Assembly (NCBI GenBank): GCA_963796105.1 | Contig: CAWCKJ010000004.1 | Span: forward strand, 1,088,001-1,152,000 | DNA: 64,000 nucleotides | Origin: a candidate division FCPU426 bacterium | Lineage (GTDB): Bacteria; Oederibacteriota; Muellerivitia; Muellerivitales; Muellerivitaceae | Direction of reading: 5' to 3' | Shown here: piece after piece, positions 3,477 to 44,020 of the stretch | Position numbering within the stretch: position 1 is the stretch's first letter | Layout: every line of letters begins with the position of its first letter | Notes under the pieces: generated by a model | Databases searched by the model: none | Told to the model about the DNA's origin: nothing | Seen by the model: only the letters and a program-made list of their open reading frames with translations | Position numbers and translations under genes: made by a program

Positions 3477-4462
3477 TATGCTTATGCACAAAGTGACCGT
3501 GCTGTAATGGGTTTTGCTAAGGCACATGCGGTCAAAGCACGGTGAAATAAGGAATCGGGATCATGACGACGGTTGAACCGATAGGCATATTCACTTAGAT
3601 ACCGGCCTAAATACTTAGCATCAACGCCATGATGAGTTCCAATGATCCAGGCCTTGGCGTTGGAAATGAACCGGTGTACCCAGGGCAACCAACTTTCCAA
3701 CTCTTTCGGGTCATTGGCCATCACCCGGTAGTCTGCCTCCACTCCTTTGAGTTCACGCAAGGCTGGCGAAGCATCTGTGTTGAGGAAAGAGCCTTTTTCC
3801 ATAGTCTGATTCACGAATTCCTGGCTCTCCCACTTGGTTTCCATAGCTACCTTCACCTTGGCAAAACCCGCTTTTTCCTTCTTGCAACCATTCTCATCCA
3901 CCCATTCCTTGCTTTCCACCGCCACCAAGACTTCCACTTGGTTTTCCTTGGCCTTTTTCCCAAAAACCGCCCCATCCAACTCAATGACGCCCTTTAGAGT
4001 ATAGCTTTCGTCCTTTTGCCTAAGACCTTCCCGGATCTTATGCAATAGAAGCCATGCCGAATGATCCGAAAGATTTAAATGCCGCTTCAGTTCCAGGGCC
4101 GAAATACCCCGTTTGCCCTGCATCATCAAACTGATGGCCCTGACCCAGGTTAAAAGAGGCAGCTTGGAGCTTTCAAAAATCGTCCCGGCGCGAAGCCGAA
4201 GACGTTTCCGGCAATAGTCACATTCCCTCACTTCAGGCTTGGCCTGGTGTTGCCAGAAGCTTTCGCCCTCACATTGGGGACAAACAAAGTCTTTCCCGCC
4301 GAAACGGCATCTCCACACCCATTGGCGGGCTTCTTCTTCCGTGTGGATTTTCCTCAGAATTTTAATGCTTTTCATCCGCTGGTAGCTCATGTACCACCTC
4401 CCGTAGCGGACAGTATACCTATGTATTCCTTTATTTCAAGGGTCACTTAATACAGAAGCATG
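3477..4462 (-). mobile_element. IS1595-family insertion sequence (986 bp)
   Basis: Imperfect 22-bp TIRs (TATGCTTATGCACAAAGTGACC vs CATGCTTCTGTATTAAGTGACC, 17/22). 8-bp TSD AAGCTCTG at 3469-3476 and 4463-4470. Confidence 0.92.
3482..4390 (-). CDS. IS1595-family transposase
   Basis: Zn ribbon (CPQC...CDYC), AGTIFESSKLPL, IELDG, TD, HHGV...YLSEYAYRFNRR. Confidence 0.95.
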   Translation of the reverse strand: MSYQRMKSIKILRKIHTEEEARQWVWRCRFGGKDFVCPQCEGESFWQHQAKPEVRECDYCRKRLRLRAGTIFESSKLPLLTWVRAISLMMQGKRGISALELKRHLNLSDHSAWLLLHKIREGLRQKDESYTLKGVIELDGAVFGKKAKENQVEVLVAVESKEWVDENGCKKEKAGFAKVKVAMETKWESQEFVNQTMEKGSFLNTDASPALRELKGVEADYRVMANDPKELESWLPWVHRFISNAKAWIIGTHHGVDAKYLGRYLSEYAYRFNRRHDPDSLFHRALTACALAKPITARSLCA

Positions 4463-11588: not shown

Positions 11589-13697
11589 TTACTTTGGAAT
11601 GGCTAAAGATTCTGATTTTATAGTCAATTCATCCAACTTTTGGAGAAGCTGGGGCGGGGGTTGGTAGATCGAATCCCACTTGGCCGCCTCCAGTAGGGCC
11701 GTTTTCGCCTCATCGTAACGCCCCTGATTCCCCAAAACCTGCCCCAGGTTGTAATTCAAAAGGCCGTTGGCCCCGAAGCCCAAGGCCTTTTGGAAAGCCG
11801 GAAGGGCCAGGTTGTATTGCTTGTCCCAATAGTAATTGTTGGCGAGTTTCCCCCAGTAATAAAACTTGAGGAAAGGATCACCCTGGAAATCCGCTTCACG
11901 GTCCAACAAATAATGGATGGGTTTATCGAGGGGCTGGGTGAAGGGATGGTCCATGAGCAGGAAGTCCAGTTCCCGCAGGTTCCTGTCGGCTTTCGACCAG
12001 CTTTCCAGGGTTTTCCGGCCGGAAGGACTCAGGGTGATGAGGGCCTCAAGGCTGGAATCGCAGGGGGAAGGATCTTTCCATTCGATTAAGGAAGCGCCGG
12101 GGAACAAACGGGTTAAATGGGCCTTGCATCCGTTGTCCGCGATAACAGCGGCCCAGGAAGCCTTATGGGGGTCTAACAAAGGATTGGCCAGGGCGTTGAA
12201 GGAGTAGGTGCCCAAGTTCAAATAAACAGGAAGCCATTCATCCATGGAAAAATCCGAATAAACCAAGCCGGGACCAGAGGTTTGACTGAGTTTTTTAAGG
12301 TTCTCGTAAAGAGCGACCCTCGGATTCGTGTCCGAGAAATCCCGGTTGGCGACGGCCATCGATTTCGCAAGGGTGACTTGATCCAGGATCATCGAAATAA
12401 TAAAAACCGGAAGTATGAAGACAAACTTGGCGGGTCGTTCGGGAAGCCCGTCCAGGATGACTTCAAGCCCCAGGGCCATGGTGGCTATGACGAAGGGAAG
12501 AAGAGGGGCCAGGTGATAGCCATTAATATTATTGGCCAATAGGCAGGGCAAGAATAGGACGGCCGAGCTGACGGCGGTCCAATGCGCCATGGGAATTTTT
12601 CGGAGGCGCCACCATTCCGCGGTCCCCATGAAAAACAGGCTTACCAGAATCGGGTTCAAGAGACCGCCCCACCCGGAGTTGTATAAGAAATACCAGGGCT
12701 GGCCCGTCCAGAAAAGGTTGGTGAAAAGAAATGCGTTTTGCCAGTAGCGCCAATGGTAAGCCTCATCCCCCTTCTGATTGAGGGCGAATAGGATCTTGAT
12801 ATAAGCCCCGAAATTTTCACTCAAGGCCGCGAGCGCCAAGGGAAGAAGAGTGAGAAAGGCCGCGGCCAGGAAGAGAAAAAGGTCCCATTTCCGGCTTGGC
12901 CAGGAACGCCGGATAAACCAGCCGAGGGTGAGCAGGACGCACAGAGCGATCAAGGGCCATGCAAAGTAAGTGTAAAATCCTAAGCCCAGTAAAAAACCCA
13001 GGATGATCGAAAGCGCCGGCTGGCCACGCGAGGGACCGGTCTTTAAGAACTTGGCTAGAATCCAGGAAATCAGGGCCTGGCATAAAACCATCAGAACCGC
13101 GTTATGGGAAAAACGCCCGATGAATACCGGCCAAAAGGTGAGGCCCAAAAGCGCGAGGCATAAAAACGAGAAGGACTTGGAAAAATACAAGCGGAAGGCC
13201 AGGTAATAAAATACCGCGCTGAGAAAGGAAAGAATGGCGGGAACCAGCCAAAGATTCCGGAAAGAGACTCCCCCAAGCTTGAAAACAGAGGCCAACAGCC
13301 AGAGGTAAAGAGCCGGTAATTGGCTGGAGTAATAAAAAAACGGCCAGCCTCCATGGTTATTCAAGTGAATGGCGCTATAGGCGTTCACCATTTCGTCCAG
13401 GATAGGAAAAGTAAGAAAGGAATCCAGCTTGTAAAGGCGGATGCCAAGGGCTACCCCAAAGGTTAAAAAAATCCACCAGGCCGCGGGGGTAAAAATTTCA
13501 CGGGAGAAAACCGGTTGTTCCTGAGAGGAAATCGAAGGCCGGTTTTTAATGTAAGCCCAGCCCAAAAACAACAAGCCCAAGGAGCCCGCCAATAGCTTAA
13601 GGATCCCATCCAGCGGCGAATAGGCCAGGATGGCGTTAAGCGCTGTCAGAAGCGTGAAGAAGACGGCGGGCCTGGATAAAAGGGAGGCCAAGTTCAT
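11589..13697 (-). CDS. ArnT/PMT-like (GT-C) membrane glycosyltransferase with C-terminal TPR
   Basis: Multiple TM helices, IRLYKL...DE acidic motif after an early TM, GLGFYTY, C-terminal TPR (YNLGQVLGNQGRYDEA). Confidence 0.75.
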   Translation of the reverse strand: MNLASLLSRPAVFFTLLTALNAILAYSPLDGILKLLAGSLGLLFLGWAYIKNRPSISSQEQPVFSREIFTPAAWWIFLTFGVALGIRLYKLDSFLTFPILDEMVNAYSAIHLNNHGGWPFFYYSSQLPALYLWLLASVFKLGGVSFRNLWLVPAILSFLSAVFYYLAFRLYFSKSFSFLCLALLGLTFWPVFIGRFSHNAVLMVLCQALISWILAKFLKTGPSRGQPALSIILGFLLGLGFYTYFAWPLIALCVLLTLGWFIRRSWPSRKWDLFLFLAAAFLTLLPLALAALSENFGAYIKILFALNQKGDEAYHWRYWQNAFLFTNLFWTGQPWYFLYNSGWGGLLNPILVSLFFMGTAEWWRLRKIPMAHWTAVSSAVLFLPCLLANNINGYHLAPLLPFVIATMALGLEVILDGLPERPAKFVFILPVFIISMILDQVTLAKSMAVANRDFSDTNPRVALYENLKKLSQTSGPGLVYSDFSMDEWLPVYLNLGTYSFNALANPLLDPHKASWAAVIADNGCKAHLTRLFPGASLIEWKDPSPCDSSLEALITLSPSGRKTLESWSKADRNLRELDFLLMDHPFTQPLDKPIHYLLDREADFQGDPFLKFYYWGKLANNYYWDKQYNLALPAFQKALGFGANGLLNYNLGQVLGNQGRYDEAKTALLEAAKWDSIYQPPPQLLQKLDELTIKSESLAIPK

Positions 13698-13701
13698 CTA
13701 C

Positions 13702-15327
13702 TTACCGGCAAACGAAAAGGGTGGCGGACAAGGGGGGAAGGCTCATGTCGAATTGGTTGTCGGAAAGTTTCCCAATTTTTCCCGGCTTGATCTCCGGGGA
13801 GTGGGAATCAAATCCGTAACAGCTGTAGTCGGAATAGGCTGTTGTCGACTGGACCTTGAATTTGCCGTGGACCTCGTCCTTCTGGTTCTTATTGAGCACT
13901 AAAACCCAAAGGACTCCCGCTGACTTTGGATCAGTGGAGGCGTAAATCGAGGTCTGCGCGACATCTTCCGTGGCGGCCGAAACGGAGGTGCCGCCGAAGG
14001 CTGCTCCTTTCCCGTCGTAATTGCGGTAAATCTTGAAAGCGGCCCGGTTATAGGGTTTCAATTCCCCCCAATAGTTGGCCATGAAGACCAAATTTTTCCC
14101 AAAGATGCCCAGGACGTCCGCCTGGGCCAATCCCCCGGAAACATGGTTGCCTGCCCCGTAATCGTATTCGGTGAAGGAAAGTTTCGTGCCTGGATAACGG
14201 TTCTCGATCTTCTCCTTGATCCAGGGGATCAGGGTGATGGGCCGGCCCTTGGTGGAAGACTGGGTGATCCAGCTCTTCTCCACGTAGCCAGGGTCCCAAA
14301 GACTGCGGGGAGCCTGGAGCCTCGCTTCCACGCTTTCCGCGGAAGTGTCTCCCTCGGTGATTCGCTTTCCCCCCCCTTGGGCCTCGGGATACCAGTGGAG
14401 GTCCAAAACGTGCAGGAGGCGATTATGGTCCCTCTTTTCCAGGTAACGCATCTGGTCCAGGTAGAAATCCAAAAAACTCCCGAACTGCTGGTTGATGTCC
14501 GCCGCGTCGGGGGAATCCTGGAGATTAAGGAAAGCCTGCCAGCCGTAGCACACAGGCCCGAAAATCATGGCGGTGGGGTCCACTTTCAGGATGCCGAGGG
14601 CGGTTAATTCCGTGTTTTTCACCATTTCCCAGTAGCCGGTTTTCTTGGGATGGATGCGCGGGTGGGTGGAAGGCCAGAGGGCAGGCTCATTGTCCAGGTC
14701 GTAGAACCTCACGCCGCCCTCTAAGCCCCTCTTGTAGTTGGAGACCAGGAAATTCACGAACTCATCGTCATAGACGGCCGGAGCGTCCGGGTCCGGCGCC
14801 AGGGAGAAAGCCCTTTCCTTCCGGGGCAGAACCCTTTTCCAGCGCTTGGAGGGGGCGGTTTCCTTTTCGCTGACCTCGCCCTTCTTGTCGGAGGCCACAT
14901 AGCCCGCCATCTGAACCGTCACGAGGGATTCCACGCCGGCCTTCTGGTTGGCCTCCACGAAATGGCGCACGAACGCCCCAGGCTGGTCGCAGTCGGTGTA
15001 ATGGTGGTCGTCGCAAAGCCAGTTGTCGCTCACGTGGCGCCAGTCGTTTCCCGCGTTGGAGGCGTTGGTGACCCAGTTGTACCCGGTCATGCGGTTTCCG
15101 CCCAGGCGCCGCACGGTGGCATGGGTGTCCTGGGGGTCGGTGTCGTTCAAGCCGTAGATAAAGGGACTGATGGGCCCGATGACCTCCTCCGGCATCACCA
15201 GGAAGTTGATGTCCGCGGCCTTGGCCCCCGAAAGGGAAAGTCCCAAGGCGGCGAATAAGAACCATTGGATCATTCTACGATTGGGCAAGGAAGGCTCCTG
15301 GACAGGCTGGGATATGAAAGGACGCAT
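13702..15327 (-). CDS. Secreted glycoside hydrolase family 44 (endoglucanase/xyloglucanase-like)
   Basis: RLGGNRMTGYNW, SNAGNDW, YDLDNEPALW (acid/base), LDLHWYPE, SFTEYDYG (nucleophile) and a signal-like segment. Start placed at the ATG overlapping the upstream TGA. Confidence 0.88.
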   Translation of the reverse strand: MRPFISQPVQEPSLPNRRMIQWFLFAALGLSLSGAKAADINFLVMPEEVIGPISPFIYGLNDTDPQDTHATVRRLGGNRMTGYNWVTNASNAGNDWRHVSDNWLCDDHHYTDCDQPGAFVRHFVEANQKAGVESLVTVQMAGYVASDKKGEVSEKETAPSKRWKRVLPRKERAFSLAPDPDAPAVYDDEFVNFLVSNYKRGLEGGVRFYDLDNEPALWPSTHPRIHPKKTGYWEMVKNTELTALGILKVDPTAMIFGPVCYGWQAFLNLQDSPDAADINQQFGSFLDFYLDQMRYLEKRDHNRLLHVLDLHWYPEAQGGGKRITEGDTSAESVEARLQAPRSLWDPGYVEKSWITQSSTKGRPITLIPWIKEKIENRYPGTKLSFTEYDYGAGNHVSGGLAQADVLGIFGKNLVFMANYWGELKPYNRAAFKIYRNYDGKGAAFGGTSVSAATEDVAQTSIYASTDPKSAGVLWVLVLNKNQKDEVHGKFKVQSTTAYSDYSCYGFDSHSPEIKPGKIGKLSDNQFDMSLPPLSATLFVCR

Positions 15328-16742
15328 CAATAATAGCTTAAGGGAAGCCTTTCTCCCACCCAGTGGTAATTTTTTTCCTGGATGGCCCTCACGATGCGTC
15401 CCCGGTCCCGGTAGAGGGTGTAAACATCCCAGATCCGGACGGCGTAGGCTGCCTGGAAGATGAGCGCCGCTGCAAGGAAAACCTTCGCGAAATTCCTCCA
15501 GAAGGGGATATGGGCGAGGCGGCTCCAGCAGTAGAGCGAGAAAAGAAAGACCATGGGAAAGGTGCCGTCGTAATAAATGTGGGAGAGGGGCCACTTGATG
15601 GTGAACCAGAAGCTCGCCCAAACCATTAGGAAAGTGAACAAGGCCAGCTTACGGACGGCGGGCCAATCCCTCAAGCCGTGTTTCTTGAAAAACCACAGGA
15701 CAAAGAGCGCCATCGGCTGAATGAGCCCCACGACCCAAAGGAAAATACCGGGATAAAGAAGGAAGGGGGAACCCATCAGGAACTCCAACCGGGCATGGGT
15801 GCTATGGCCCGGCTGGAAGGAAGGGGGCCAAGCCCATCCGGCCCAATGGGGGCCGGAAGCCGTTCCCCAGGTGGTGTAACCGGGGGAGCCGGGCGGGTCC
15901 AGGAAGAAGGGCATCTCAAAACAAGCCCCCGAAAGCCAACGGCCGAGGATGGTAAAAAATTGCTTGAAGTTCTCCAGGCAAAAGAAAGTGATGTATCCAC
16001 CCCTCCCGGACGGGATGCCGCCGTATTTCAACAGGGCCGACAGGATCAGCGCGGCCATGGGCAGGCTTCCCAGGATGGTAAAGAGCAAGGCGGTTGGGAG
16101 GGCCGCTGGTTTTTTCCGCCATTGGAGGATAAGGGAAAGAATGAGAAAAGCCGCGAGGTACAACCAGGACATGTTCAACTGGGCCATCCAGAGGAGCCCG
16201 AAGCCCATCAGGGCGCAGCTCAGGCGCAGGGAGAAAATATTCAAGCTGAAGCCGGGAATGGACTCGAAAAAACCGACATAGAACAGGATGCAGCCGAAAA
16301 GGCACCAGGAGCGGGTGATCATGCCGGTGTTCTCATGGAGGGTCCAGGGCAAGAGCACGAGGGAAAAGTAAATAATCCAGGGGGATAGGTTTGGGACCCG
16401 TTTGGAGCAGTACCAGGCGAATAGGGCAATAGCCGCGAGGTTGATCAGGTTCAGGAAAATGAACGGGGATTCCGGGATGGGCCAAACCCGCAGGGGAAGG
16501 CTGACCATCAAGCCCATCAACGCCCCGGGGGTCTGGTTGTAGTGGGTGGTCTCTGCCCCTCCCAGGTCCGGGCCGAAATAGGGCCAGGTGCCGGTGCAGT
16601 AGCTTTTCAATCCCAAGAGGTAGGTTTGAAGCTGGTCCGAGGACCAGAAAGGGAGGGACAGCCCGAATCCCAAGCGGAAGAAGAAGGCGAAGAGAAGCGC
16701 CAGGATTATTTTTTGGTTGTGGGTCAAGATGCCTTCATCCAC
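15327..16742 (-). CDS. Polytopic membrane protein, putative GT-C, tandem paralogue 4
   Basis: Shares DQLQTYLLGLK..TGTWPYFGPDL and C-terminal AIQEKNY..GERL..SYY with three upstream paralogues. Highly hydrophobic. Confidence 0.75.
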   Translation of the reverse strand: MDEGILTHNQKIILALLFAFFFRLGFGLSLPFWSSDQLQTYLLGLKSYCTGTWPYFGPDLGGAETTHYNQTPGALMGLMVSLPLRVWPIPESPFIFLNLINLAAIALFAWYCSKRVPNLSPWIIYFSLVLLPWTLHENTGMITRSWCLFGCILFYVGFFESIPGFSLNIFSLRLSCALMGFGLLWMAQLNMSWLYLAAFLILSLILQWRKKPAALPTALLFTILGSLPMAALILSALLKYGGIPSGRGGYITFFCLENFKQFFTILGRWLSGACFEMPFFLDPPGSPGYTTWGTASGPHWAGWAWPPSFQPGHSTHARLEFLMGSPFLLYPGIFLWVVGLIQPMALFVLWFFKKHGLRDWPAVRKLALFTFLMVWASFWFTIKWPLSHIYYDGTFPMVFLFSLYCWSRLAHIPFWRNFAKVFLAAALIFQAAYAVRIWDVYTLYRDRGRIVRAIQEKNYHWVGERLPLSYY

Positions 16743-16763
16743 CTTTCGCCCTATCTCGCGGGA

Positions 16764-18119
16764 TTAATATTGGCTGCCGGCGCGTCTTTCACCAAGGATC
16801 CTGTAATCTTTTTCCGCGATCGCCTTTTGAACCAGGGGCCGGTTCAGGTAAAGGGACTGGACCCGCGACATTTCCACCAGGTATCCGGCTTGGAACCAGA
16901 GGCTGGCAACGAGGCATAAGACGCCAATTTTACGCCAGGAGTATTTCCGGGCAAGACCGGCCCAGGCATAAAAAGAATAAACAGCCAAAAGGGGCATCAG
17001 GATATAGAAGGAGGTGGCGGAGGTTCCTTTGGCGTTGAACCAGAAGGCGGCCCAGGCGAGGAGAAAACCGAAAAACACCGTACCAACCGCCGGCCTAGCC
17101 TCTGGGTGCCGGTTATCCTTGAGCCAGACGCCCCATCGGGCGGGAATCACCCGGAGTTTTATGTTGGCGCAAAGGTATAGGAGCAAGATCAAGGGTTGCA
17201 GCCAGCCAGCCAGGAGCAGAAAAACCGCGGGAAGGATCAGCCAGGGGGCGTTTTGGAGGAATAGAAGGCGCATATGAGTGTTCGCCCCCAGGTATTTGGG
17301 CATCTCAAAGGAGACGATGGAAAAATAACGGGCCAGGACCGTGAAGAAGGCCAGGAAATTATCCCGGTTAAATCCCACCGCCAGGCTCATTCCGCCCGAT
17401 TCCCGGCTCAGGCCATAATGAACCCAAGTGGGAACGAGAAATGCCAGGGGAAGAGCCGAGCCCAAGAGAAATCCCCCGATTTCCGAAAACCATTTTGAGT
17501 TTCCTTTCCGAAGCCTGAGGAAAAAAGCCAGTGCGATAAAGGGGGGCAGGAGAACCCATGAGAAATGAAACTGCATATCCCAGAAAAGCCCGAAACCCAT
17601 CAAAGCGAACGCGAAAGAAGGGGAGAGCCCCAAGACCGCGAGGCCCGGCGACGCCTCCAAGAAGCCGATGAAGAAGGGGACACTGCCCAACAGGAGGAAC
17701 GAGGTATTGATGGTATTGGCTGAAATATGGAGGTTCCAGGGAAGTAGGCACAGCCAAGTCAGGGTGAAGGCGAAGGGTATCTCCGGGATTCTCTTGGAGA
17801 CATACCAGGCCAGGAAACCCAGGGTGCCCATTGAAAGGAGGTTCAATAAAATGAGGGGGGCCTCAGGAATGGGGCAAAGGTGGAAAGGAAGCCCAATTAT
17901 TAGGCCTTCCAGGGCGCCAGGGATCTGGGACTCGAAATTTTTCTCCAGCCAGAACAAATCCGGGCCGAAATAAGGCCAGCTTCCGGTGGTATAGCATTTC
18001 AACCCGATGAGGTAGGTTTGAAGCTCGTCCACCGAGAAGAAAGGCTGGGAGAGCCCGAAGGCCAGCCGGAACAAGAACAGGAACAAAAACAAAAAAATAA
18101 GTTTTAGCTTGTTGGACAT
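16764..18119 (-). CDS. Polytopic membrane protein, putative GT-C, tandem paralogue 3
   Basis: DELQTYLIGLKCYTTGSWPYFGPDL, QIPGALEG, MQFHFSW, C-terminal LGERRAGSQY. Confidence 0.75.
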   Translation of the reverse strand: MSNKLKLIFLFLFLFLFRLAFGLSQPFFSVDELQTYLIGLKCYTTGSWPYFGPDLFWLEKNFESQIPGALEGLIIGLPFHLCPIPEAPLILLNLLSMGTLGFLAWYVSKRIPEIPFAFTLTWLCLLPWNLHISANTINTSFLLLGSVPFFIGFLEASPGLAVLGLSPSFAFALMGFGLFWDMQFHFSWVLLPPFIALAFFLRLRKGNSKWFSEIGGFLLGSALPLAFLVPTWVHYGLSRESGGMSLAVGFNRDNFLAFFTVLARYFSIVSFEMPKYLGANTHMRLLFLQNAPWLILPAVFLLLAGWLQPLILLLYLCANIKLRVIPARWGVWLKDNRHPEARPAVGTVFFGFLLAWAAFWFNAKGTSATSFYILMPLLAVYSFYAWAGLARKYSWRKIGVLCLVASLWFQAGYLVEMSRVQSLYLNRPLVQKAIAEKDYRILGERRAGSQY

Positions 18120-19466
18120 TTAATACAAGCTCCCGGGACGGCGTTCCCCCAGCAAGTGGTAATTCTTATCCTGAATGGCCCTCACCGCGGTACCCCGGTT
18201 CAAGTAAAGGGACTGCCTGGGGAGGCGGTAAACGATCAATCCCAATTGGAAAAAAAGGCTGATGACCAGGCAAATCCTGCCGAAATTCCTCCAGGAAGCC
18301 TTTTCCGCCAATCGGTCCCAAACGTAAAAGGAGAAAATGGCCAACAGGGGGAAATAGACGAAATAGATATGGGCAACCGGCTCTTTCTGGGTGAACCAGA
18401 AGCTGACGTAAAGAAGAAGGAAAGCCCCCCAGGTCCAATGATAAACCGCTTGGGCACCCCGGGAAGCGGAAGTTCCCGCCTGTTTTTTAATGGCTCCCAT
18501 CAAGGGTTGAATCCATCCGAGGGCCAGGAGAATCAAGGGCTGGATCCAGCCCACACCAACCAGAAAAAGCCCAAAGGGAAATAACCAGGGAGCCTGATGG
18601 ACCAGAAAATCCCAGCGGTCGTGAAAATGATTCCCGATGAATTGGGGTATCTCGTAGCAGGGCAGGGAGAGATAACGGGCCAGGATCGTCCCGAAGTCGA
18701 GGAAATGGTCTTTATTGAAAAGCATGACGGTGCTTCCGCCCGCGAACACCTGGTTCCATCCATAACTCAATAGGGTGGGCAGGACCAGGGCCGCGGGCGG
18801 GATCGAGCCCAGGATGAAAAATAGAACGGCCCTGAAAGTCCCGCCCCATCCCGCCTTTCGGCCGTAGAAAAAAAACGCGGCAGGGACAAGGGGGGGAAGC
18901 AGGATCCAGGAAAAATGAAATTGCATGTCCCAAAAGAGCCCGAAACCAATCAAGGCGAAAGCCCAGGCGGGGTCCAGAAACCCGCCGGAAAGGGCCGGGA
19001 CGGTTTCCATCAGCCCGATGAAAAAAAGAACGCTTCCCATTAGCAGGTAGCTCGGGTTCAGGACCCAGGTGGATTGGTTCAAGGTCCAGGGGAGAAGGGA
19101 GGTCCAAGCGAAAATGAAAAGGAAGGGAATGTTCTTGAGCCGCCTGGAAAGGAAACAACTCAATAGAGCGATTGAGGAAAGGGAGAGCAGGTTCAAGAGG
19201 AGGAAGGGGGCCTCGGGAATGGCCAAGAGGAAAAAGGGCCCCCCCACCAGGAGAGCCTCCAGGGCCCCGGGAATTTGGGCCCGCACCGAGCCGAAAAAAA
19301 CCAGATCCGGGCCGAAAAAGGGCCAACCCCCGCCGCAGTACCACTTCAAACCGATCAGGAAGGTTTGCAGGTGGTCCTGGTCCATGAAGTCGCCGCTCAA
19401 GCCGAATGCCGAGCGGAAAAGGAACAGGAAGAGGAAAAGAAGGATGAATTTCATTCTAGCGGACAA
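18120..19466 (-). CDS. Polytopic membrane protein, putative GT-C, tandem paralogue 2
   Basis: DHLQTFLIGLKWY..GWPFFGPDL, QIPGALEA, MQFHFSW, C-terminal LGERRPGSLY. Start may be ATG 19454. Confidence 0.75.
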   Translation of the reverse strand: MSARMKFILLFLFLFLFRSAFGLSGDFMDQDHLQTFLIGLKWYCGGGWPFFGPDLVFFGSVRAQIPGALEALLVGGPFFLLAIPEAPFLLLNLLSLSSIALLSCFLSRRLKNIPFLFIFAWTSLLPWTLNQSTWVLNPSYLLMGSVLFFIGLMETVPALSGGFLDPAWAFALIGFGLFWDMQFHFSWILLPPLVPAAFFFYGRKAGWGGTFRAVLFFILGSIPPAALVLPTLLSYGWNQVFAGGSTVMLFNKDHFLDFGTILARYLSLPCYEIPQFIGNHFHDRWDFLVHQAPWLFPFGLFLVGVGWIQPLILLALGWIQPLMGAIKKQAGTSASRGAQAVYHWTWGAFLLLYVSFWFTQKEPVAHIYFVYFPLLAIFSFYVWDRLAEKASWRNFGRICLVISLFFQLGLIVYRLPRQSLYLNRGTAVRAIQDKNYHLLGERRPGSLY

Positions 19467-19511
19467 GGGGTTCCTTCCAAAAACAGGATCAGCGGCGGCC
19501 TCATTCGGCTC

Positions 19512-20819
19512 TCAATATAAGCTTCCGGCACGGCGCTCCCCAAGGGGGCGGTAATCCCTCTCTTGGATGGCCCTGAGGATGGGCGCGCGGGAAGGAAGCC
19601 AACATTGCCTGGGAGCCTCCTCCCAGGCCCAAGCGCCCTGGAAAAAAACCGAGGCGATCAGGACCAGGGCGACGCTGATACCCCAAAACCTCCATTTCCC
19701 AAAGGCGGACCAAACATAACAGGAATAAACCATGACCAAGGGGAAAAAAACAAAATAAATGTGGGTCATGGGCTCCTTGGTGGTGTACCAGAAACTCGCG
19801 TAAACCATCGCGAAAACCCCCAGCAGGAGAAGTTTCAGCTCCCTCCAGCCGGGGTTCACGCTTTTCCTCTTAAACCAGGCGAGGAACAGGATAACGGCCT
19901 GAAGGATGCCCAGCACCCACAAGAAAGCCCCGGGAAGGGCCAGATAGGGATGGCCTGTCAAAAACGAGAGGCGCTCCTGGGTTCCCCCGCCGATCCACCT
20001 GGGTACTTCGAAACAAGGGAGGGAAAGGAAACGCCCCAACAGGATATGCGGCTTCATGAAATTCACCTTGTTGAATGAAATGAGAAACCCGGACACGGTC
20101 CCAGATGATTCGAAACCATATTTCAAAAGGGTGGGAACCATGAATATAAAAGGGGGCAGGCCTCCCAGGATGAAAAAGAGAAGGGGCTTGAGATCCATTT
20201 GTTGTCTTAACTGGATGAGCCAGGAAAAAACCACCAGGGGCGCGAAATAGACCCAGGAAAAATGAAACTGCATGATCCAGAAGACCGCGAAACCCATAAA
20301 AAAGTTGGCCCAGGGTAATGAGACCCGGCCTGTGGAAATTCCAGGCATGGTTTCCAGGAATCCGATCGTGAAAATCACGGACGGAAGAAAAATATAGGAG
20401 GGATTGAGGACGCGGGTGGCTTCCTGGATGGACCAGGGCACCACCGCGATCCAAACGCAAAGCCAGGGGAAGGAGAGGGAAGGGATCCTTTTGCGGATAT
20501 ACCAGGCCAGAAGGAAAACCGCCAGGGTGGACATCAAATTAACGAGGACATAGGGGGACTCGGGAAAGGGGGCCAGCCGAAGAGGCAGGGCGATCAGGAG
20601 TCCTTCCAGGGCGCCGGGAATCTGGCTGTGGAAGCCGGGATTCTCGTTGCCCGCCAGGTCCGGACCGAAATAAGGCCAGGTCCCGGTCGTCAGGCACTTC
20701 AACCCGATCAGGTAGGTTTGGATCTCATCAATGGAGTCCCACCGGGAATTGAGCAGGCCGAACATGAGCCTGAAGAGGAAAATGGCCAAAAAAAGAAATA
20801 GAAGCCCGCGTTTACTCAT
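19512..20819 (-). CDS. Polytopic membrane protein, putative GT-C, tandem paralogue 1
   Basis: DEIQTYLIGLKCLTTGTWPYFGPDL, QIPGALEG, MQFHFSW, C-terminal LGERRAGSLY. GGGAGG RBS upstream. Confidence 0.75.
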   Translation of the reverse strand: MSKRGLLFLFLAIFLFRLMFGLLNSRWDSIDEIQTYLIGLKCLTTGTWPYFGPDLAGNENPGFHSQIPGALEGLLIALPLRLAPFPESPYVLVNLMSTLAVFLLAWYIRKRIPSLSFPWLCVWIAVVPWSIQEATRVLNPSYIFLPSVIFTIGFLETMPGISTGRVSLPWANFFMGFAVFWIMQFHFSWVYFAPLVVFSWLIQLRQQMDLKPLLFFILGGLPPFIFMVPTLLKYGFESSGTVSGFLISFNKVNFMKPHILLGRFLSLPCFEVPRWIGGGTQERLSFLTGHPYLALPGAFLWVLGILQAVILFLAWFKRKSVNPGWRELKLLLLGVFAMVYASFWYTTKEPMTHIYFVFFPLVMVYSCYVWSAFGKWRFWGISVALVLIASVFFQGAWAWEEAPRQCWLPSRAPILRAIQERDYRPLGERRAGSLY

Positions 20820-21079
20820 GCAGGGGAAAACCTCCCGTGACTTGATGAACCCAAGCCATTTTATGGCCTTTACCGGTTAAAAACCCCTTTGAATTTTGTT
20901 GTATCGCTGTCCTTCCTGAGGGGCTATTTAATTCCGTTCACCCCGGTTTTCCAGGGTTTTTAAGGGAAACCGCGTACGAACCAGCCGTGTTTTGACCAGC
21001 GAGTAATAATTATGGAAAAAATTCTTTCCAAGAAACTTATTTGCGTAAGATGGACGACCTAGCGATAAAATATAAAAAT

Positions 21080-21331
21080 GTAACCTCTGAAAAAGTCGGC
21101 CATGGCCTCCTTTTTCAGAAAACAAATTATGGAAACCCCCGATTTGACGGCGCTCATAGGGAAAACCCCCTATGTACCCGCAAAACCAAGGCCTGCGGAA
21201 ATCTTTGTCCTCCATCGCGTTTTAACGCGATGGAATTCAGGACTATTCCGATCTCTTTTAGGGATTAATAGAAATTCGGCATGGGGTCGAAACCCCTGTT
21301 GGTCGCTTTTAAATAGTTTTTCAGAGGTTTC
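21080..21331. mobile_element. MITE copy 2 (252 bp)
   Basis: Same TIRs as 3063-3192. 5-bp TSD AAAAT at 21075-21079 and 21332-21336. Carries two extra internal segments. Confidence 0.85.
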
Positions 21332-21358
21332 AAAATCAATGCCAAGAGGGGAGTCCCG

Positions 21359-24300
21359 TTGACGCACTTTATCGCGGTGAATATCTTCCTTCCCATTCTT
21401 TTTGACGACGCGGGCAACGAGGACATCGAGCCCATTCTCGCCACCCAGTTTTTCATCATCGAGCAAAAATTCCAGGCCCTTACGGTCATCCACATGAAGC
21501 GCACCCCCAGGGGCCTCCTCGCGGTATTCGAGAACACCGATCCCCTTCCCGGCCTGTTGGAGATGCAATCCGAGTTCTCGAAATACGTGTGGAAAACATA
21601 CGGCAAGGCGACACTTCAACTGGCCGTGCACTCGGAGAAGCCGGGACAATGGTGGGATGATTTCAGGGGCCCCGAGTTCGACCATGTGTCGGCGCTATTG
21701 GCCGCGGCCAGGCTTGGGCAGATCCTCCTCACCGAGCAGGCGGCTTCCCAACTCGCCCCGCCCCCGGGGTATTTGTTCAAGGACCTGGGGGTCCATTCCT
21801 TGAACGACTTGTCGGAGCCGAAAACTCTTTATTCCCTCCGCCCGGCCGGTTCGGCCGTCTCCGAGGACCTGGCACCCCGCTCCCTCAAGTCCTATCCCCA
21901 GAACCTGCCTTCCCAGGCGACCCCCTTCTACGGCAGGGAGGAGGAATTGGCGGAAATCACCTCGTGTCTCCTGAATCCCACGACCCGTCTTTTGACCCTG
22001 GCGGGGCCGGGGGGATTCGGAAAAACCCGGTTGGGTTTGAAAGTGGCCTCCCAACTGGTGACCCATTTCCCGAACGGCGTTTATTTCGTGCCCCTGGCCC
22101 AATTGAGCACGGACAGCCACATGGTGACCAGCCTGGCCCACGCGGTGGGATTCACATTCACGGGCATGGAGGATTCCCAGAGGCAGTTGATCCAATTCCT
22201 CGCCGGCAAAAAAATGCTGATCCTTCTGGATAATTTCGAGCATATCCTGGACGGGGCGGTCTTGGTGGACGCCCTCCTGAAGGGGGCGCCGGGCTTGAAG
22301 GCCCTGGTGACAACCAGGGAAAAGCTCCGGCTGGAGGATGAAATTGTCATCGAGGTGAAGGGACTCTCCTATCCGATGGAGGAGCACGAGGGTGAGGCTG
22401 TCCGTTACAGCGCCGTGAGGCTTTTCCTGAGGAGCGCGAGGGCGGTCGCGGCCCCGGACTTCAACCCCTCCCCTGAGGAATTGGTCCAAGTGGCCAGGAT
22501 CAGCCGTTTCCTGGAGGGAATGCCGCTGGGGATCGAACTGGCCTCGGCCTGGGTCAAGTCCCTCCCGGTTTCCGAGATCGCGGCCAAGATTTCCACCAAC
22601 CGGGATTTCGTGGCGGCGGAAATGCCGTACCTGCCGGCCCGTCACCAGAGCTTGAGGGCGATATTCGAGTATTCCTGGGACCTGCTCTCCGCCGTCCAGA
22701 GAAGGGCCTTGAAAACCGCCTCGGTATTCAAGGGGGGGTTCACCCTGGAGGCGGCCGCCCATGTGGGAGCCGTTCCCCTCTCGGTCTGGCCCCAATTGAC
22801 CGAGAAATACCTCGTCACCGAGAAGTCCAAGGACCATTACGAGCTGCATGACCTGGTGAGGTATTACGCCAAGGAAAAACTTTTCGAGAACCCGGTGGAA
22901 AAGGAACAGGTCCTGGACGCGCATTGCGAATACCTGGCCGTGACGCTCCGCCAGAAGGAAAAGGAACTCCAGGGGCCGAGGCGGGGGAAGGCGATGGAAT
23001 TCCTGCTGTCCCAGATGGGGAACATCCGGGATGGCTGGAGAAGGGCGGTGGAAAAAGGGCAGGAAAACCGGATCGAGGATTACCTGGACTGCCTTTTTGA
23101 TATTTACCAGGATAAGGGATGGTCCCAGGAGGGTTCCGGGGTCTTCGAGGAGGCGGGCAAGCAACTTTTAGAAAAGGCAGGGGGCCGCGCAAATGGAAAA
23201 TCCGCCCTGTTGATAGGAAAGATCTATTCCCGGTGGGCGTCCCTTCTCCAGCAAATGGGAAGAATGAATGAGGCCTTGATGGTTTTCCAGGGAAGCCTCA
23301 AATTCTTGAAGCCGACGAAGAGTTTGAAACAAGTGGCGTTTTGTTATAACGGGTTGGGCGTGACCCTCACCGACCTGGCCCAGGATAAGAAGGCCAGGAA
23401 TTATTTCAACAAGGCCCTGAGGATTTATCAAAAGGCCAAGGATCCTTCCGGGACTGCCAGGTTGTACAACAACCTGGGGCATAACATCATGAGGGCCGGG
23501 AATTTCCGGCAGGCCCGGATCTTGATTCAGAAGGCGCTGACCTATTTCGAGAGTGGCGGCGACCTGAAAGGCACGGCGGACTCCTATATCCTCCTAGGAA
23601 CCATTCAACACGACATGGGGGACAATTCCTCGGCTCGGGCGTTGTTCCAAAAGGCCTTGGGCGCTTACGTGGAATGCGACAACCGGCGGGGCATGGCCTG
23701 GGCCTTTACGAATATGGGGGAAGTGGCGGAGGCCGTGGGGGATTTCAACGGCGCCAAGGAGATGTACCAGGAGGGCCTCGGACTCCATGAGGGTTTGGGG
23801 GACCGGAAGGCCATGGGATGGTCCAAGGGCCTGCTGGCCTGGATCAATTGGGCCATCGGGGATTACGCGAAGGCCAAGCAATACGCCAAGTCGGGGTTTG
23901 AGGACTTCCGGTTCGTGAAAGACGTCAGGGGTGAGGCTTGGGCGCTGGAACTACAGGGAAACCTGGCGGTCAGCGAGGGGGATTTCAAGGGCGCCCGGCA
24001 ATTCTACAACGAGTGCCATGACCTGGTGAAAACCAAGGAAATCCTTTCCATGGGGAAAGCTTGGCACCTGTACCATCTGGGGGATCTTTTGAGCGCCGAG
24101 GGCAAACTTGACGCGGCCTATCCTTATCTCAAGAAATCCCTGGCGATGTTCCAGACCATCGGCGAGAACATCGGGATCATTACCGCCTTGACCCAGTTGG
24201 CGGAGGTGGAGTACGAGAAAGGAATGATGGGGAAAGCCAGGAACCGCCTGGTTAAAACCTTCGAGAAAGCCCTCGCCACCCATTCGCTCCCCCACTTGAC

Positions 24301-24610
24301 GGACGCCATGGTGGTGCTCGCCCAATGGCTGATCGCCCAAAACATCAATTCCAACGCTTTCGCCTACCTGACCCTGGCCGTGAGCCATCCGACCTGCCGG
24401 CGCCAGACGAAGGATCGGGCGGCGAAGTACCTGACCCACCTGCAATACCGCCTGCCCCCAGGGGAGGTGGAGAAAATCTTCAGGTGGTCCAAGACCGTCC
24501 AACTGGAGGAAGTCGCCCAAAACTGGTTGACCGAGCAAGAGAAAAAACCAAAGGGAAAGGGCGTGAAAACCCGCGCGAAGAAAACCCGGAATAAAGCCAA
24601 GAAACGCTGA
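21359..24610 (+). CDS. STAND-type ATPase-TPR protein with degenerate N-terminal class III cyclase-like domain
   Basis: NLPSQATPFYGREEEL, Walker A GPGGFGKT, Walker B LLDNFEH, EGMPLGIELA, RHQSLRAIFEYSW, many TPRs. The N-terminus retains GQILLT...DLGVHSLNDL. Confidence 0.88.
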   Translation: MTHFIAVNIFLPILFDDAGNEDIEPILATQFFIIEQKFQALTVIHMKRTPRGLLAVFENTDPLPGLLEMQSEFSKYVWKTYGKATLQLAVHSEKPGQWWDDFRGPEFDHVSALLAAARLGQILLTEQAASQLAPPPGYLFKDLGVHSLNDLSEPKTLYSLRPAGSAVSEDLAPRSLKSYPQNLPSQATPFYGREEELAEITSCLLNPTTRLLTLAGPGGFGKTRLGLKVASQLVTHFPNGVYFVPLAQLSTDSHMVTSLAHAVGFTFTGMEDSQRQLIQFLAGKKMLILLDNFEHILDGAVLVDALLKGAPGLKALVTTREKLRLEDEIVIEVKGLSYPMEEHEGEAVRYSAVRLFLRSARAVAAPDFNPSPEELVQVARISRFLEGMPLGIELASAWVKSLPVSEIAAKISTNRDFVAAEMPYLPARHQSLRAIFEYSWDLLSAVQRRALKTASVFKGGFTLEAAAHVGAVPLSVWPQLTEKYLVTEKSKDHYELHDLVRYYAKEKLFENPVEKEQVLDAHCEYLAVTLRQKEKELQGPRRGKAMEFLLSQMGNIRDGWRRAVEKGQENRIEDYLDCLFDIYQDKGWSQEGSGVFEEAGKQLLEKAGGRANGKSALLIGKIYSRWASLLQQMGRMNEALMVFQGSLKFLKPTKSLKQVAFCYNGLGVTLTDLAQDKKARNYFNKALRIYQKAKDPSGTARLYNNLGHNIMRAGNFRQARILIQKALTYFESGGDLKGTADSYILLGTIQHDMGDNSSARALFQKALGAYVECDNRRGMAWAFTNMGEVAEAVGDFNGAKEMYQEGLGLHEGLGDRKAMGWSKGLLAWINWAIGDYAKAKQYAKSGFEDFRFVKDVRGEAWALELQGNLAVSEGDFKGARQFYNECHDLVKTKEILSMGKAWHLYHLGDLLSAEGKLDAAYPYLKKSLAMFQTIGENIGIITALTQLAEVEYEKGMMGKARNRLVKTFEKALATHSLPHLTDAMVVLAQWLIAQNINSNAFAYLTLAVSHPTCRRQTKDRAAKYLTHLQYRLPPGEVEKIFRWSKTVQLEEVAQNWLTEQEKKPKGKGVKTRAKKTRNKAKKR

Positions 24611-24779: not shown

Positions 24780-25022
24780 ATGGCTGCGGCTAAAATTGCC
24801 ATCACCATCGATCGGGAAATCCTTAAAAACGTGGACCGGTTGGTGGAAAAGAAAATTTACCCCAACCGCAGCCGGGCTATCGGAGACGCGCTTCGGGAAA
24901 AAATCGCGAGGCTGGGCCGGAACCGTCTCGCCAATGAATGCGCTAAATTGGATCGAAAAGCGGAGCAAGCCCTGGCGGATGAGGGCTTATCCAGCGAGTT
25001 GAAAAATTGGCCAAAGTATTAA
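24780..25022 (+). CDS. Ribbon-helix-helix (CopG/NikR-like) antitoxin
   Basis: KIAITID...VDRLV...YPNRSRAI; overlaps the toxin gene. Confidence 0.88.
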
Positions 25023-25345
25023 GGGGTGATATTCTCTGGGCGGATTTGAATCCCGTCAAAGGCCATGAGCAATCCGGCTTAAGGCCGGTTTTGATATTAA
25101 GCCATGACGTTTTTAACGAGAGATCAGGCACGGTCATCGCCGTAGCCCTCACCAGCCGTGAGCCCAAAGCCGGTTTTCCCCTCACCTTCGGGCTCAACTC
25201 CCGAAAATTACCGAAAAAATCCTGGGTTAAAATCAGCCAAATCAGGACCTTGTCCGTGGAGCGTTTGGGCGTCAAATTAGGCCGGGCGACTCCCGAGGAA
25301 ATATCCCAAATTGTTGAGGGACTGGAAGAAATTATCGGCGATTGA
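25007..25345 (+). CDS. mazF: PemK/MazF family endoribonuclease toxin
   Basis: [39 protein letters not shown]. Confidence 0.95.
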
Positions 25346-27178: not shown

Positions 27179-28822
27179 CCTGAATTTTGCACCGAGTTTA
27201 CCGATTCCGTGGCCAGATCGGCCTGAATCGGGACCCGACAGTGGCCATTTTCATCAGAAGTGAACTTATGTGCAAAGAATTTTTTGCACCAAGCCACTTC
27301 TAGGCCGCCCTGGGTCTTTCCAATCGTTTTCGATCAAGGTATTTGAGGAAACCCAATAGGCCCGCTGTCCTATCATCATGGATTGAATACCTCACCACAT
27401 CCCGATGGCCGTGATACTGGATTCGGGCGGCTACAAAGAGCATCTTCAAACGTGCGATCCGAAGGGTATGGTCCGGCATGGTGATCTGTTCCTTCTCCTG
27501 TGGCTTCTTTCCCGGTCGCTTTTCTTTTCCACAATGGCCCACCATTAGTTTCATCCACCTCCAGAGGTTGTAAGCCAGCATCACGATCTGGAAAAAAGCA
27601 TGGTGGCTTTGGAAACTCTTAGAGGGAATTGCTAATAACCCCTCCCGTTGCGCCTCACCAATCAGGTTTTCCACATCCGCGCGCAGGTCGTATTCCTCAA
27701 CCACCCGATGGGGTGCTCCCAGACAGTTGGTCGCGAAGATTCGGTAGACATATCCTTCCATTTCAGGAAGGCTCAATTGTTTCTCCCGCGCTTTTTCATC
27801 CAGCGTCCTCATCGCCACAAACCGGACTGGTTGTTGCCAGCCTATGGGTTGATGGACACATTCGTTGTATTCGTGTTCTCCATGGCGGTACCAACCCTTT
27901 TTCGTGAAAGGCGGGTCATGCCGCTTGTTCCCGAAGATGAAAGAAAACCCTTCTTTTTCACAGGCTTTCACGCTTTCCCAGCCGATCATTTCACCGTCAC
28001 CGCGCACCAGAATCGTCCGGACACAGGACGGCAAGAGTCGCCGGAATTGTCTAATTTGGCGGGCCACTTCCTCAGAACTAAGGGTGGTTCCGCGTCTTTG
28101 GGTTCCGCACAAATATTCCCGGGTTTCCTGGAGAAAACACAGAATGGGCCTCAGTCCCTTCTTGCCCCGGTGCTTGGGGTTGTATCCTTTTCGGCTTCCC
28201 TCGATATTTCCGTAGACCGTTGCGGTGGTGGTATCGATGTTGATCTCCACCTTCTTGGGGGCATATTTCACCTGTCCCCAAACCTTGGCCCGTAACGCCC
28301 CACTCAGATTCAGCAACGATGCCGACTGCCCGATCCCCAGCGACCTCAGGTATCTCCAAAAAGTTGTCACTACCGGCAACAAGGGAACCCGCAGTAAACC
28401 GCACAGCATGACCTCACCCCGCAGGTAGGCAAAATGGCCAAGTCTTTGGAACCCGATGAAAAGAAGCATTAGGATGCCGCTTACCATCCGGTAGTGGCCC
28501 AAATTCGGAAGGCGTTTAGGTGCGGCATAGTGTTTTTTGAATTCCCGCTCAAAATCAAGAAGGTCGAACATCTTCGCCAATGCCAACAATCCGCCAAAAG
28601 CTGTTAGGCGGTCTTCGCAAATACCTACGGGAGTATTGGCCGTAATCTTGGGCGCGATTCTCCCGTTTCGATTGGCTTTTTTCTGGACTTGCGGGTTTGA
28701 TTTCTGAGGCGTATCTTGACGTTTCACCATCTGGGGGACCCTCTTTTAGGATGAGTTGGCTTCGCAACCCTTATCCTATAATGGTTTCCTAGATGGTTTT
28801 TTTATTAGGCGCAAAATTCAGG
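27179..28822 (-). mobile_element. IS1380-family insertion sequence (1644 bp)
   Basis: TIRs CCTGAATTTTGCACC / CCTGAATTTTGCGCC. 5-bp TSD TTATA at 27174-27178 and 28823-28827. Confidence 0.93.
27300..28730 (-). CDS. IS1380-family DDE transposase
   Basis: LTAFGGL, INIDTT..VYG..EG...GYNP, VRGDG, Y..RADVENLIGE, LAYNL. Confidence 0.92.
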   Translation of the reverse strand: MVKRQDTPQKSNPQVQKKANRNGRIAPKITANTPVGICEDRLTAFGGLLALAKMFDLLDFEREFKKHYAAPKRLPNLGHYRMVSGILMLLFIGFQRLGHFAYLRGEVMLCGLLRVPLLPVVTTFWRYLRSLGIGQSASLLNLSGALRAKVWGQVKYAPKKVEINIDTTTATVYGNIEGSRKGYNPKHRGKKGLRPILCFLQETREYLCGTQRRGTTLSSEEVARQIRQFRRLLPSCVRTILVRGDGEMIGWESVKACEKEGFSFIFGNKRHDPPFTKKGWYRHGEHEYNECVHQPIGWQQPVRFVAMRTLDEKAREKQLSLPEMEGYVYRIFATNCLGAPHRVVEEYDLRADVENLIGEAQREGLLAIPSKSFQSHHAFFQIVMLAYNLWRWMKLMVGHCGKEKRPGKKPQEKEQITMPDHTLRIARLKMLFVAARIQYHGHRDVVRYSIHDDRTAGLLGFLKYLDRKRLERPRAA

Positions 28823-38258: not shown

Positions 38259-38425
38259 TGGGTTATTTTAATGGTCCAAAGGGCGATTGAGGATATTTTC
38301 TGGAAAAGAGGCGAATCCTTCCAGACTTCCTAATTGTATATAATGGCACCCAAGTCAAAATTCCAGGTTCCCCGGACGGACCATCCCTGAAATCTAAAAC
38401 GTTCCAATCCCTTAATCCTTTTCTG

Positions 38426-40567: not shown

Positions 40568-40588
40568 CCCGCGTCTATTGGGTCAGGC

Positions 40589-42784: not shown

Positions 42785-42906
42785 GGATTGATTTTAGCAG
42801 GTCCATCGGCAACTAAAAACAACGGGATGAACCGTTTCAAATCGTTTTTGCCGCCTTTGCCCGCGAGGGGATTGCCGGGATCGAGGGATAGCGGTTCCTT
42901 AAAGCC

Positions 42907-43761
42907 TCAAGCTAATTTTCCTGTTTGGTAATCCAGGAAAGCCTGCTTCAGTTCGCCGGGGGTGTTCATGACGAATGGCCCGCCGCGGGCGATGGGTTCC
43001 CCGATCTTTTGGGCTGAGGCGAACAGGAAGCGCGCCTTCCCCCCGCCTGAGTCCTTGAGATGGATTTGGTTTCCCTCGCCGAAGACTCCCAAATATCCGG
43101 TTTTGCCGGATTGAGTTTTACCAGCACCTAACGCTTCAACTTGTCCCTCAATTACGTAGATGAAAGCGTTCTGGTTCTCAGGAACTGGATACTCAAATTC
43201 CGCTTCAGGGTCCAAAGTCAGGTCGAAATAACTGAATGGGATATTGCTCTTCGCCGGGCTTTTTTGGCCCCCATATTCACCCGCGAGAATTTTCGCCCTC
43301 ACACCGCCTTGCTCGACGACTGGCAAAGCCTCCGAGGGAATGTCCTGGTAATAGGGTTCGATCATTTTCCATTTGGCGGGGAGGTTCAGCCAAAGCTGGT
43401 AGCCCCAGGAAAGACCGCCGGTTGGCTCCGGCATCTCGCTGTGGATGAGGCCCTTGCCCGCGGTCATCCATTGGACGGCCCCGGTTTTCAAGTGGCCCTT
43501 GTGGCCCCGCGAGTCCCGGTGGGTGAAATTGCCCGCCAAGAGGTAGGTGATGGTCTCGAACCCCCGGTGGGGGTGGTCGGGGAAGCCAGCCATGTAATCC
43601 CCGGGATCATCGTTCTTGAACTCGTCCAGGAGAAGGAAGGGGTCCAAATGATCCAGCTCCCGCGAGGCGATGATACGCTTGAGCTTGACCCCCGCCCCGT
43701 CGGAAGTGTCTTGGCCCCGGATGATTTTATCGATGGATCTTATTTTCTTAGTCTGGCTCAT
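42907..43761 (-). CDS. Pirin family protein
   Basis: DGAGV, DPFLLLD, GFPDHPHRGFETITY, WMTAGKGLIHSE, QLWLNLP, GPFVMN. Confidence 0.95.
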   Translation of the reverse strand: MSQTKKIRSIDKIIRGQDTSDGAGVKLKRIIASRELDHLDPFLLLDEFKNDDPGDYMAGFPDHPHRGFETITYLLAGNFTHRDSRGHKGHLKTGAVQWMTAGKGLIHSEMPEPTGGLSWGYQLWLNLPAKWKMIEPYYQDIPSEALPVVEQGGVRAKILAGEYGGQKSPAKSNIPFSYFDLTLDPEAEFEYPVPENQNAFIYVIEGQVEALGAGKTQSGKTGYLGVFGEGNQIHLKDSGGGKARFLFASAQKIGEPIARGGPFVMNTPGELKQAFLDYQTGKLA

Positions 43762-43861
43762 GATGCTCCCCCCTTGTTCTTTCCCCATTTTTATGAACAT
43801 CAGGGATGAATATCCAGTGGTTACCAGGGGGAGAGCGGTTTGAGAAAGGGAATAAAGATTT

Positions 43862-44002
43862 TGTCATTGCGAGCCGCGAACTCCGCGGCGAAGCAAACTC
43901 AGTTTATGGGTGGTTTTTTAGGATTTGGATTAAGGCATTATTAAACTAAGGTTGCTTCGTCATAATCACCCGCCTATTCGGCGGGCATTCCTCGCAATGA
44001 CA
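43862..44002. repeat. REP/RPE-like palindromic element
   Basis: Terminal inverted repeat TGTCATTGCGAG...CTCGCAATGACA with inner CGAAGCAA/TTGCTTCG pairing. Confidence 0.75.
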
Positions 44003-44020
44003 TATTAAGGTTTAGAGAAT

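Follow-up and report, generated by a model that had tools for sequence, protein, structure and literature searches.

Membrane glycosyltransferases of fold class C (GT-C) are characterized by 7-13 transmembrane (TM) helices, an extracytoplasmic loop after the first of them (TM1) and a catalytic aspartate at that place (PMC11127046); the GT-CA families mostly use lipid-phosphate-monosaccharide donors and act with inversion (PMC10920833), and in DPY19, OST and PMT a carboxylate is described as the analogous base (PMC10154233). In the Myxococcus exopolysaccharide (EPS) locus, EpsB is important but not essential, its function being uncharacterised (PMC7484181). Here we describe an array of four tandem GT-C-like genes, P1 to P4, which lies upstream of a gene for a glycoside hydrolase of family 44 (GH44) in a 64,000-nucleotide stretch of DNA (the window; positions 1,088,001 to 1,152,000 of contig CAWCKJ010000004.1, assembly GCA_963796105.1) from a candidate division FCPU426 bacterium whose genome we call G000. 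We tentatively favour, at just under even strength, the reading that P1-P4 are periplasmic side-branch glycosyltransferases for a surface glycan, most likely lipopolysaccharide (LPS), and that neither the GH44 gene nor the ArnT-like gene behind it is a member of the pathway. The array comprises the following genes:

19512..20819, minus strand: P1, GT-C-fold paralogue of clade A and the array's first gene; 435 aa, 11 predicted TM helices, with Asp31 starting the first external helix.
18120..19466, minus strand: P2, the first of two clade B paralogues; 448 aa, starting with TTG; its DH is DR in the orthologue from the related genome G001.
16764..18119, minus strand: P3, the second clade B paralogue; 451 aa.
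15327..16742, minus strand: P4, the clade C paralogue; 471 aa, with Asn for His186; absent from the G001 array.

A preliminary description of this DNA had placed six co-oriented genes here, and all six open reading frames (ORFs) were found, on the minus strand, with the spacing claimed for them: gaps of 45, 0 and 21 nt, then a TGATG at 15329-15325, then 4 nt. P1-P4 are 41-50% identical in pairwise comparison, far beyond chance, and carry the shared motifs as described, with two deviations: FRSAFGL in P2, and AQLNMSW instead of MQFHFSW in P4. The assertion that the family is unnamed was borne out for Pfam, NCBIfam and PDB sequence searches: P1-P4 gave no NCBIfam match at E <= 1, no relevant Pfam match at E <= 0.1 and no profile match above cut-off to ArnT/GT83, PMT/GT39 or ALG9-ALG12/GT22, and a profile of 135 family sequences gave no match to PDB sequences at E <= 10. 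Alignment of the family with the neighbouring PMT_2 protein by hhalign (0.6%) detected no profile relationship, and members are called "hypothetical protein" in the databases, as far as encountered. We regard the family as undescribed, though of a known enzyme class, and its multi-paralogue arrangement as unusual; no description of the family or of a GT-C/GH44 unit was found in the literature searched, outside which most subscription journals lie.

An AlphaFold (AF2) model was made for P1 (pLDDT 94.6, pTM 0.94), and the fold of P2-P4 is predicted from their identity to it. Foldseek ranked ArnT, ALG9, AglB, AftA, ALG12 and Emb at the top for this model, the best match being ArnT 5F15 (E 2.8e-4). 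In a structural comparison with 48,161 PDB representatives, 20 chains reached Z >= 8, all of them GT-C enzymes or glycosylphosphatidylinositol (GPI)-transamidase chains, and the next row stood at Z 3.9; ALG12 was the best match (Z 22.1, root-mean-square deviation (rmsd) 3.8, 321 residues aligned), ArnT gave Z 19.6 (rmsd 4.2, 359 aligned) and Pmt1/2/4 took the third and fourth ranks. The GT-C fold that had been proposed is thus upheld by the P1 model, and the nearest named ESM Atlas clusters to the family are PMT_2/PMT/GT87. A transporter fold was rejected, major facilitator superfamily chains being matched only at TM-score 0.11-0.17.

In the predicted topology, from the model helices and the alternating K/R-rich loops of 147 members, the chain starts on the inside and crosses the membrane in 11 TM helices. 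The first external loop of P1 has 60 residues, with D31 opening a helix at 30-45, and the acidic residue that had been noted after TM1 proved invariant (144/144). Near-complete conservation extends to Q34 (145/145), D54 (144/146), Q184 (147/147), H186 and R283 (146/147 each) and R429 (138/139); Q66, N139 and E271 are also invariant or nearly so in the family alignment. The conserved polar residues from D31 to R429 sit in loops that alternate with the K/R-rich ones, that is, on the predicted periplasmic face. P1 combines a predicted GT-C fold, a helix count of 7-13 with an external loop after TM1, and an acidic residue in that loop, and judging from the model the array proteins are very probably GT-C enzymes.

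The four genes are not recent copies of one another. A FastTree phylogeny of 147 family members, from which array clades were then assigned by BLAST vote to tree-labelled references, assigned P1 to clade A, both P2 and P3 to clade B and P4 to clade C, each gene being nearer to genes in other genomes than to its array neighbours. Recent tandem duplication is excluded, since the four genes represent three clades and each gene has its nearest kin in other genomes. The ratio of nonsynonymous to synonymous substitution (dN/dS) against the nearest orthologue is 0.14-0.17, an approximate figure with synonymous sites near saturation; on the sequence data, then, the paralogues are old and under purifying selection. 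Arrays hold 2-5 tandem paralogues, with A before B in 18 of the 21 that are GH44-linked and C or D last where present; of the remainder, G004 has C alone and two end at contig ends, and in G023 3.4 kb separates A from B. One five-gene array, in L015, contains an inverted clade D paralogue (L015:3483-4871) next to a second clade D copy. Because the clades are old and separately maintained, A, B and C likely differ in the linkage they form or in the position at which they act. The specificity code that had been read from the DE, DH and DQ pairs was not sustained: the residue after D31 varies within clades (clade A: E in 16, Q in 14, Y in 1; clade B: E in 26, A in 6 and four singletons), and the DH of P2 is DR in its 77% identical orthologue. 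Nine other alignment columns separate clade A from B. Alone among the 147 aligned members, P4 has Asn in place of the near-invariant His186, a substitution that may impair its activity.

The family also recurs in LPS gene clusters, whose gene names here are Pfam families as we interpret them. In 24 of 27 carrier genomes, G000 included, a family gene lies between gmhA/rfaE/kdsB and a DUF3108-GT9-rfaE-gmhB-MsbA-like operon (none in G012, G022 and G379; G005 and G020 stand outside the count). The occupant is usually of clade F, the clade nearest to the Acidobacterial singletons; it is of clade B in G000 and G001, and in G011, G377 and G378 the LPS cluster holds A-(A/F)-B arrays without GH44. In another slot, seen in 7 loci, a clade B gene is co-oriented within a GT9-GT9-GT9-[B]-aminotransferase-GT9 run, GT9 being the heptosyltransferase family, and G000 has LpxC and 12 GT9 matches. 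Since the same clades occupy the GH44 site and the LPS sites, the evidence points to a shared acceptor. That this acceptor is a glycan we consider quite probable; that it is LPS in particular is an evenly balanced judgement.

Under the favoured reading, small polyprenol-phosphate-sugar-synthase-like (DPM-synthase-like) GT2 enzymes encoded elsewhere would load sugars on undecaprenyl phosphate, a flippase would move the undecaprenyl-phosphate-sugar outward, and each 11-helix inner-membrane paralogue would transfer one sugar as a side branch to a surface glycan, likely LPS, with Asp31 after TM1 as the putative base that activates the acceptor hydroxyl. GH44 would travel on the array transcript with a job of its own, and the ArnT-like gene would be a bystander. 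Candidate donor synthases in G000 are five GT2s of 233-249 aa; the NCBIfam families that they match best, each time with a score under the cut-off, are AglJ, dolichyl-phosphate hexose transferase and PpgS.

The family is concentrated in one lineage. It occurs in 28 of 30 relatives from the same bacterial family, with 1-9 matches each (7 members in G000). Among 68 further genomes of the phylum one gave a match, a weak one, and in the phylum to which an Acidobacteriota carrier belongs 3 of 301 genomes matched strongly; singletons were met in Acidobacteriota, Gemmatimonadota and Spirochaetia records. An exhaustive search yielded 576 clusters at 50% identity, and tblastn of P3 against plasmids gave no match. 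Among the 150 representatives listed of these 576 clusters, a regular-expression motif for a C-terminal domain of ~160 aa was present in 19 and one for a shorter Ig-like tail in 9. A scan of 50 proteins matched the ~160-aa domain to CBM_4_9 in 2, of which one passed the cut-off; the domain gives weak PDB matches, 8 of 9 to CBM22 and CBM4, and has a fold resembling CBM61/16/22/4. The carbohydrate-binding module (CBM)-like domain of these distant members is a hint, not proof, of a polysaccharide acceptor, because such a fold is common. Seven distant members (P0245, P0248, P0253, P0254, P0258, P0261 and P0264) carry an Ig-like tail of ~125 aa without Pfam or NCBIfam match, and on six metagenome contigs (L062, L066, L074, L078, L080 and L085) a singleton stands in line within an apparent arginine biosynthesis operon, as read from N-termini.

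Several observations weigh against side-branch transfer to LPS with GH44 as an outsider. The likening of D31 to the GT-C catalytic aspartate follows its described position, not a superposition on ArnT or ALG12. In the main LPS slot the family gene and its LPS neighbours are encoded on opposite strands, each slot, like the GH44 link, amounts to one inherited event, and other family copies adjoin mdh or unrelated genes; the Acidobacterial and other singletons stand away from LPS clusters, among unrelated genes such as those of the arginine operon. P1-P4 themselves lack the CBM-like domain, whose fold also matches toxin and MAM domains. No GtrA-type flippase match was found in G000, other flippase types lying outside that search, and the linked polyprenol-phosphate-sugar synthase and flippase of a Gtr-type system were seen beside none of the arrays examined. 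Finally, the join between array and GH44 has outlived loss of the flanks (downstream in G000 and G001, on both sides in G023 and the metagenome locus L059), and its gaps measure only 11-121 nt in most loci.

The genes and the region that flank the array are these:

13702..15288, minus strand: GH44 endo-beta-glycanase, single domain; likely start TTG 15288, alternatives ATG 15327 and ATG 15273.
11589..13697, minus strand: PMT_2 + TPR (ArnT-like) GT-C gene; 702 aa, co-oriented, outside the conserved unit.
20820..21358, no strand: divergent intergenic region of 539 nt, the presumed site of the array promoter.
21359..24610, plus strand: NB-ARC/TPR protein, a conserved divergent neighbour that also faces GH44 in array-less G017.

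The GH44 assignment is firm (Pfam PF12891, E 9e-60, 202.8 bits), the closest solved relatives being Cel44C/xyloglucanase (486 bits against Cel44C). The NEP and TEY motifs are intact and aligned with those of Cel44C; we take their Glu residues to be the catalytic glutamates. The protein is a bare catalytic domain without an appended CBM or C-terminal tail, and its N-terminus, judged by eye, is signal-peptide-like, which suggests a periplasmic location. The letters of the TGATG overlap reported between P4 and GH44 are present, but its ATG is probably not the GH44 start: TTG 15288 is likelier, because it is preceded by AGGAG and aligns with the N-terminus of the 89%-identical G001 orthologue, and the P4-GH44 gap would then be 38 nt. 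A scan for promoters and terminators was uninformative: it returned 8 of the former and 25 of the latter, where shuffled sequences gave 5.9 and 22.5. Elsewhere in G000 (G000:C10:45386-48705, L117) stands a GH44 paralogue that is 65% identical and has an additional N-terminal domain; behind it lies a fragment that duplicates its C-terminal 145 residues.

The preliminary description had proposed that GH44 trims the product of the array. In its fullest form this alternative has A, B and then C or D attach side sugars one after another to a beta-1,4 xyloglucan-like envelope glycan that a periplasmic GH44 trims or clears in the manner of BcsZ or PslG. The adjacency on which it builds was found conserved when other genomes were checked: a family gene lies directly upstream of GH44 in 20 of 24 relatives, is not there in 3 and meets a contig end in one. 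The order of A and B, the persistence of the join through the rearrangements of both flanks, the bare catalytic domain nearest to Cel44C/xyloglucanase, the cleavage of xyloglucan and other substituted beta-glycans by bacterial GH44s (PMC8741620) and the presence of the GH44 protein EpsB within the Myxococcus EPS locus (PMC7484181) all speak for it. Against it, GH44 is retained without the array in two genomes that are 97% complete and lack the family: in G017 the NB-ARC gene faces GH44, and in G025, whose GH44 is a long branch, the order is SDR-GH44-SDR-FecR-like-LysE-like-purE-ppc. The same A-B arrays exist without GH44 in the LPS cluster, and no GH44 was shown in 4 of 5 carriers outside the lineage, genomes whose completeness is not given. 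No CelA-type cellulose synthase was found in G000 (the highest CelA score was 24 bits, where the cut-off is 699, in a search that did not extend to Wzy-type or other polymerases), and the locus holds no polysaccharide synthase, polymerase or export genes. The 20 linked genomes reflect one origin, because they are all kin, and the block is syntenic more widely, with NB-ARC upstream and SDR, FecR-like, LysE-like, purE and ppc downstream. The short gaps between array and GH44 suggest that GH44 probably depends on the array's promoter, and promoter dependence alone would preserve the join, whatever the function of a promoterless GH44. We consider build-and-trim coupling doubtful. Its stricter version, in which an ordered periplasmic assembly line branches a beta-1,4 glycan into a xyloglucan-like polymer edited by a recruited plant-wall-type GH44, with no cytoplasmic synthase in the locus, strikes us as unlikely. 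Were GH44 coupling true, a new envelope glycan pathway would be at hand; the evidence makes it the less likely reading. Because GH44 stays without the array in G017 and G025 and A-B arrays exist without GH44, we read the link as inherited rather than required, and hold it reasonably probable that GH44 is not functionally coupled to the array; it likely shares the array's transcript and keeps its own job.

Somewhat more unlikely still is a role in protein glycosylation, in which the paralogues would start or extend O-linked glycans on Thr/Pro-rich exported proteins in a PMT- or ALG12/ALG9-like manner, alongside the PMT_2-TPR genes. ALG12 as top structural match, Pmt1/2/4 close behind, the 50 PMT_2 matches of G000 and the Thr/Pro-rich exported proteins in the window and related loci are consistent with this view; the paralogues, however, lack TPR or other large soluble domains, their recurring contexts are LPS genes and the domains fused to distant members are CBM-like. 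A complex of P1 (clade A) and P3 (clade B), predicted for a Pmt1-Pmt2-like heterodimer, scored 0.09 against a mark of 0.32 and speaks neither for nor against such a dimer. The ArnT-like TPR gene (PMT_2 + TPR, Pfam E 8e-7), which had been counted as part of the operon, stands directly after GH44 only in G000 and G001, with ArnT-like genes further downstream in G023 and L059, and its product is one of 30 such matches in G000; the best description of the gene is that of a local neighbour. Very unlikely, lastly, are non-catalytic GT-C-fold proteins serving as lipid-binding scaffolds or flippase-like helpers, comparable to the GPI transamidase subunit: GPI transamidase chains do match (Z 8-11), no sequence-level match to any GT family appeared in the libraries searched and P4 lacks the near-invariant His186, but the active enzymes, at Z 16-22, reach roughly double that score, no member departs from Asp at the catalytic position and conserved periplasmic polar residues cluster with it.

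The 5-Mb genome G000 has 50 PMT_2 and 30 ArnT-like TPR matches, where relatives of the same family have 3-24, and shows a very large lineage-specific GT-C expansion. The window itself holds a second GT-C cluster at 35811-44878, with two divergent PMT_2 + PA14-like genes, a TMEM260-like + TPR gene and, two genes on, bacA for an undecaprenyl-pyrophosphate phosphatase. In the NB-ARC/TPR protein, the N-terminal part of ~180 aa has no Pfam match; it may be a degenerate class III nucleotide cyclase domain, to judge by its appearance. A 1674-aa protein of strong compositional skew (56983-62007), with C-terminal FlgD-Ig and secretion-tail-like domains, is a candidate O-glycosylation substrate. The window further contains a PemK/MazF-family gene (25007-25345), an ORF that is transposase-like in appearance (27300-28730) and an IS1595-family transposase (3482-4390).

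The array defines a glycosyltransferase family missed by Pfam, NCBIfam and PDB sequence searches, for which a fold is now predicted and candidates for the catalytic residue and the acceptors are proposed. As compact bacterial GT-C enzymes of 435 residues with several natural paralogues, its members are suited to the study of how linkage and acceptor specificity change, and they mark an uncultured lineage with an unusually large GT-C set (50 PMT_2 matches and 7 of this family).

Among known systems, the loci of BcsZ, PslG and Myxococcus EpsB likewise join an exported-type glycanase gene, for EpsB also a GH44, to glycosyltransferase genes; unlike those loci, this one is without synthase, polymerase or export genes and its GH44 persists where the array is missing, and on NF041873 the window GH44 scores 237 bits against a cut-off of 1250. 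The O-antigen glycosylation systems GtrABC and GT136 ORF12 have, as is proposed for the array, a GT-C enzyme with an Asp after TM1 that adds side sugars in the periplasm, and some members of both the ORF12 family and ours bear a C-terminal CBM-like domain (PMC11127046); GtrABC differs in its linked donor synthase and flippase and in having one such gene where arrays have 2-5 tandem paralogues. With ArnT (CAZy GT83; PDB 5F15), a bacterial inner-membrane GT-C, P1 shares a whole-length fold match and the family a recurrence in LPS gene clusters; the array proteins are 9-12% identical to it, have no PMT_2/ArnT profile match and are ~100 aa shorter, and no arn genes adjoin any family copy examined. 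The Dol-P-Man (dolichyl-phosphate-mannose) mannosyltransferases ALG12/ALG9, which we take to be CAZy GT22, are the best structural match, as compact glycan-elongating GT-C enzymes, and ALG3/9/12 set the pattern of related paralogues on one glycan; from these, at 12% identity, the array family is set apart as bacterial, by a GERR tail and by the beta-hairpin that follows WP(Y/F)FGPD in its first external loop.

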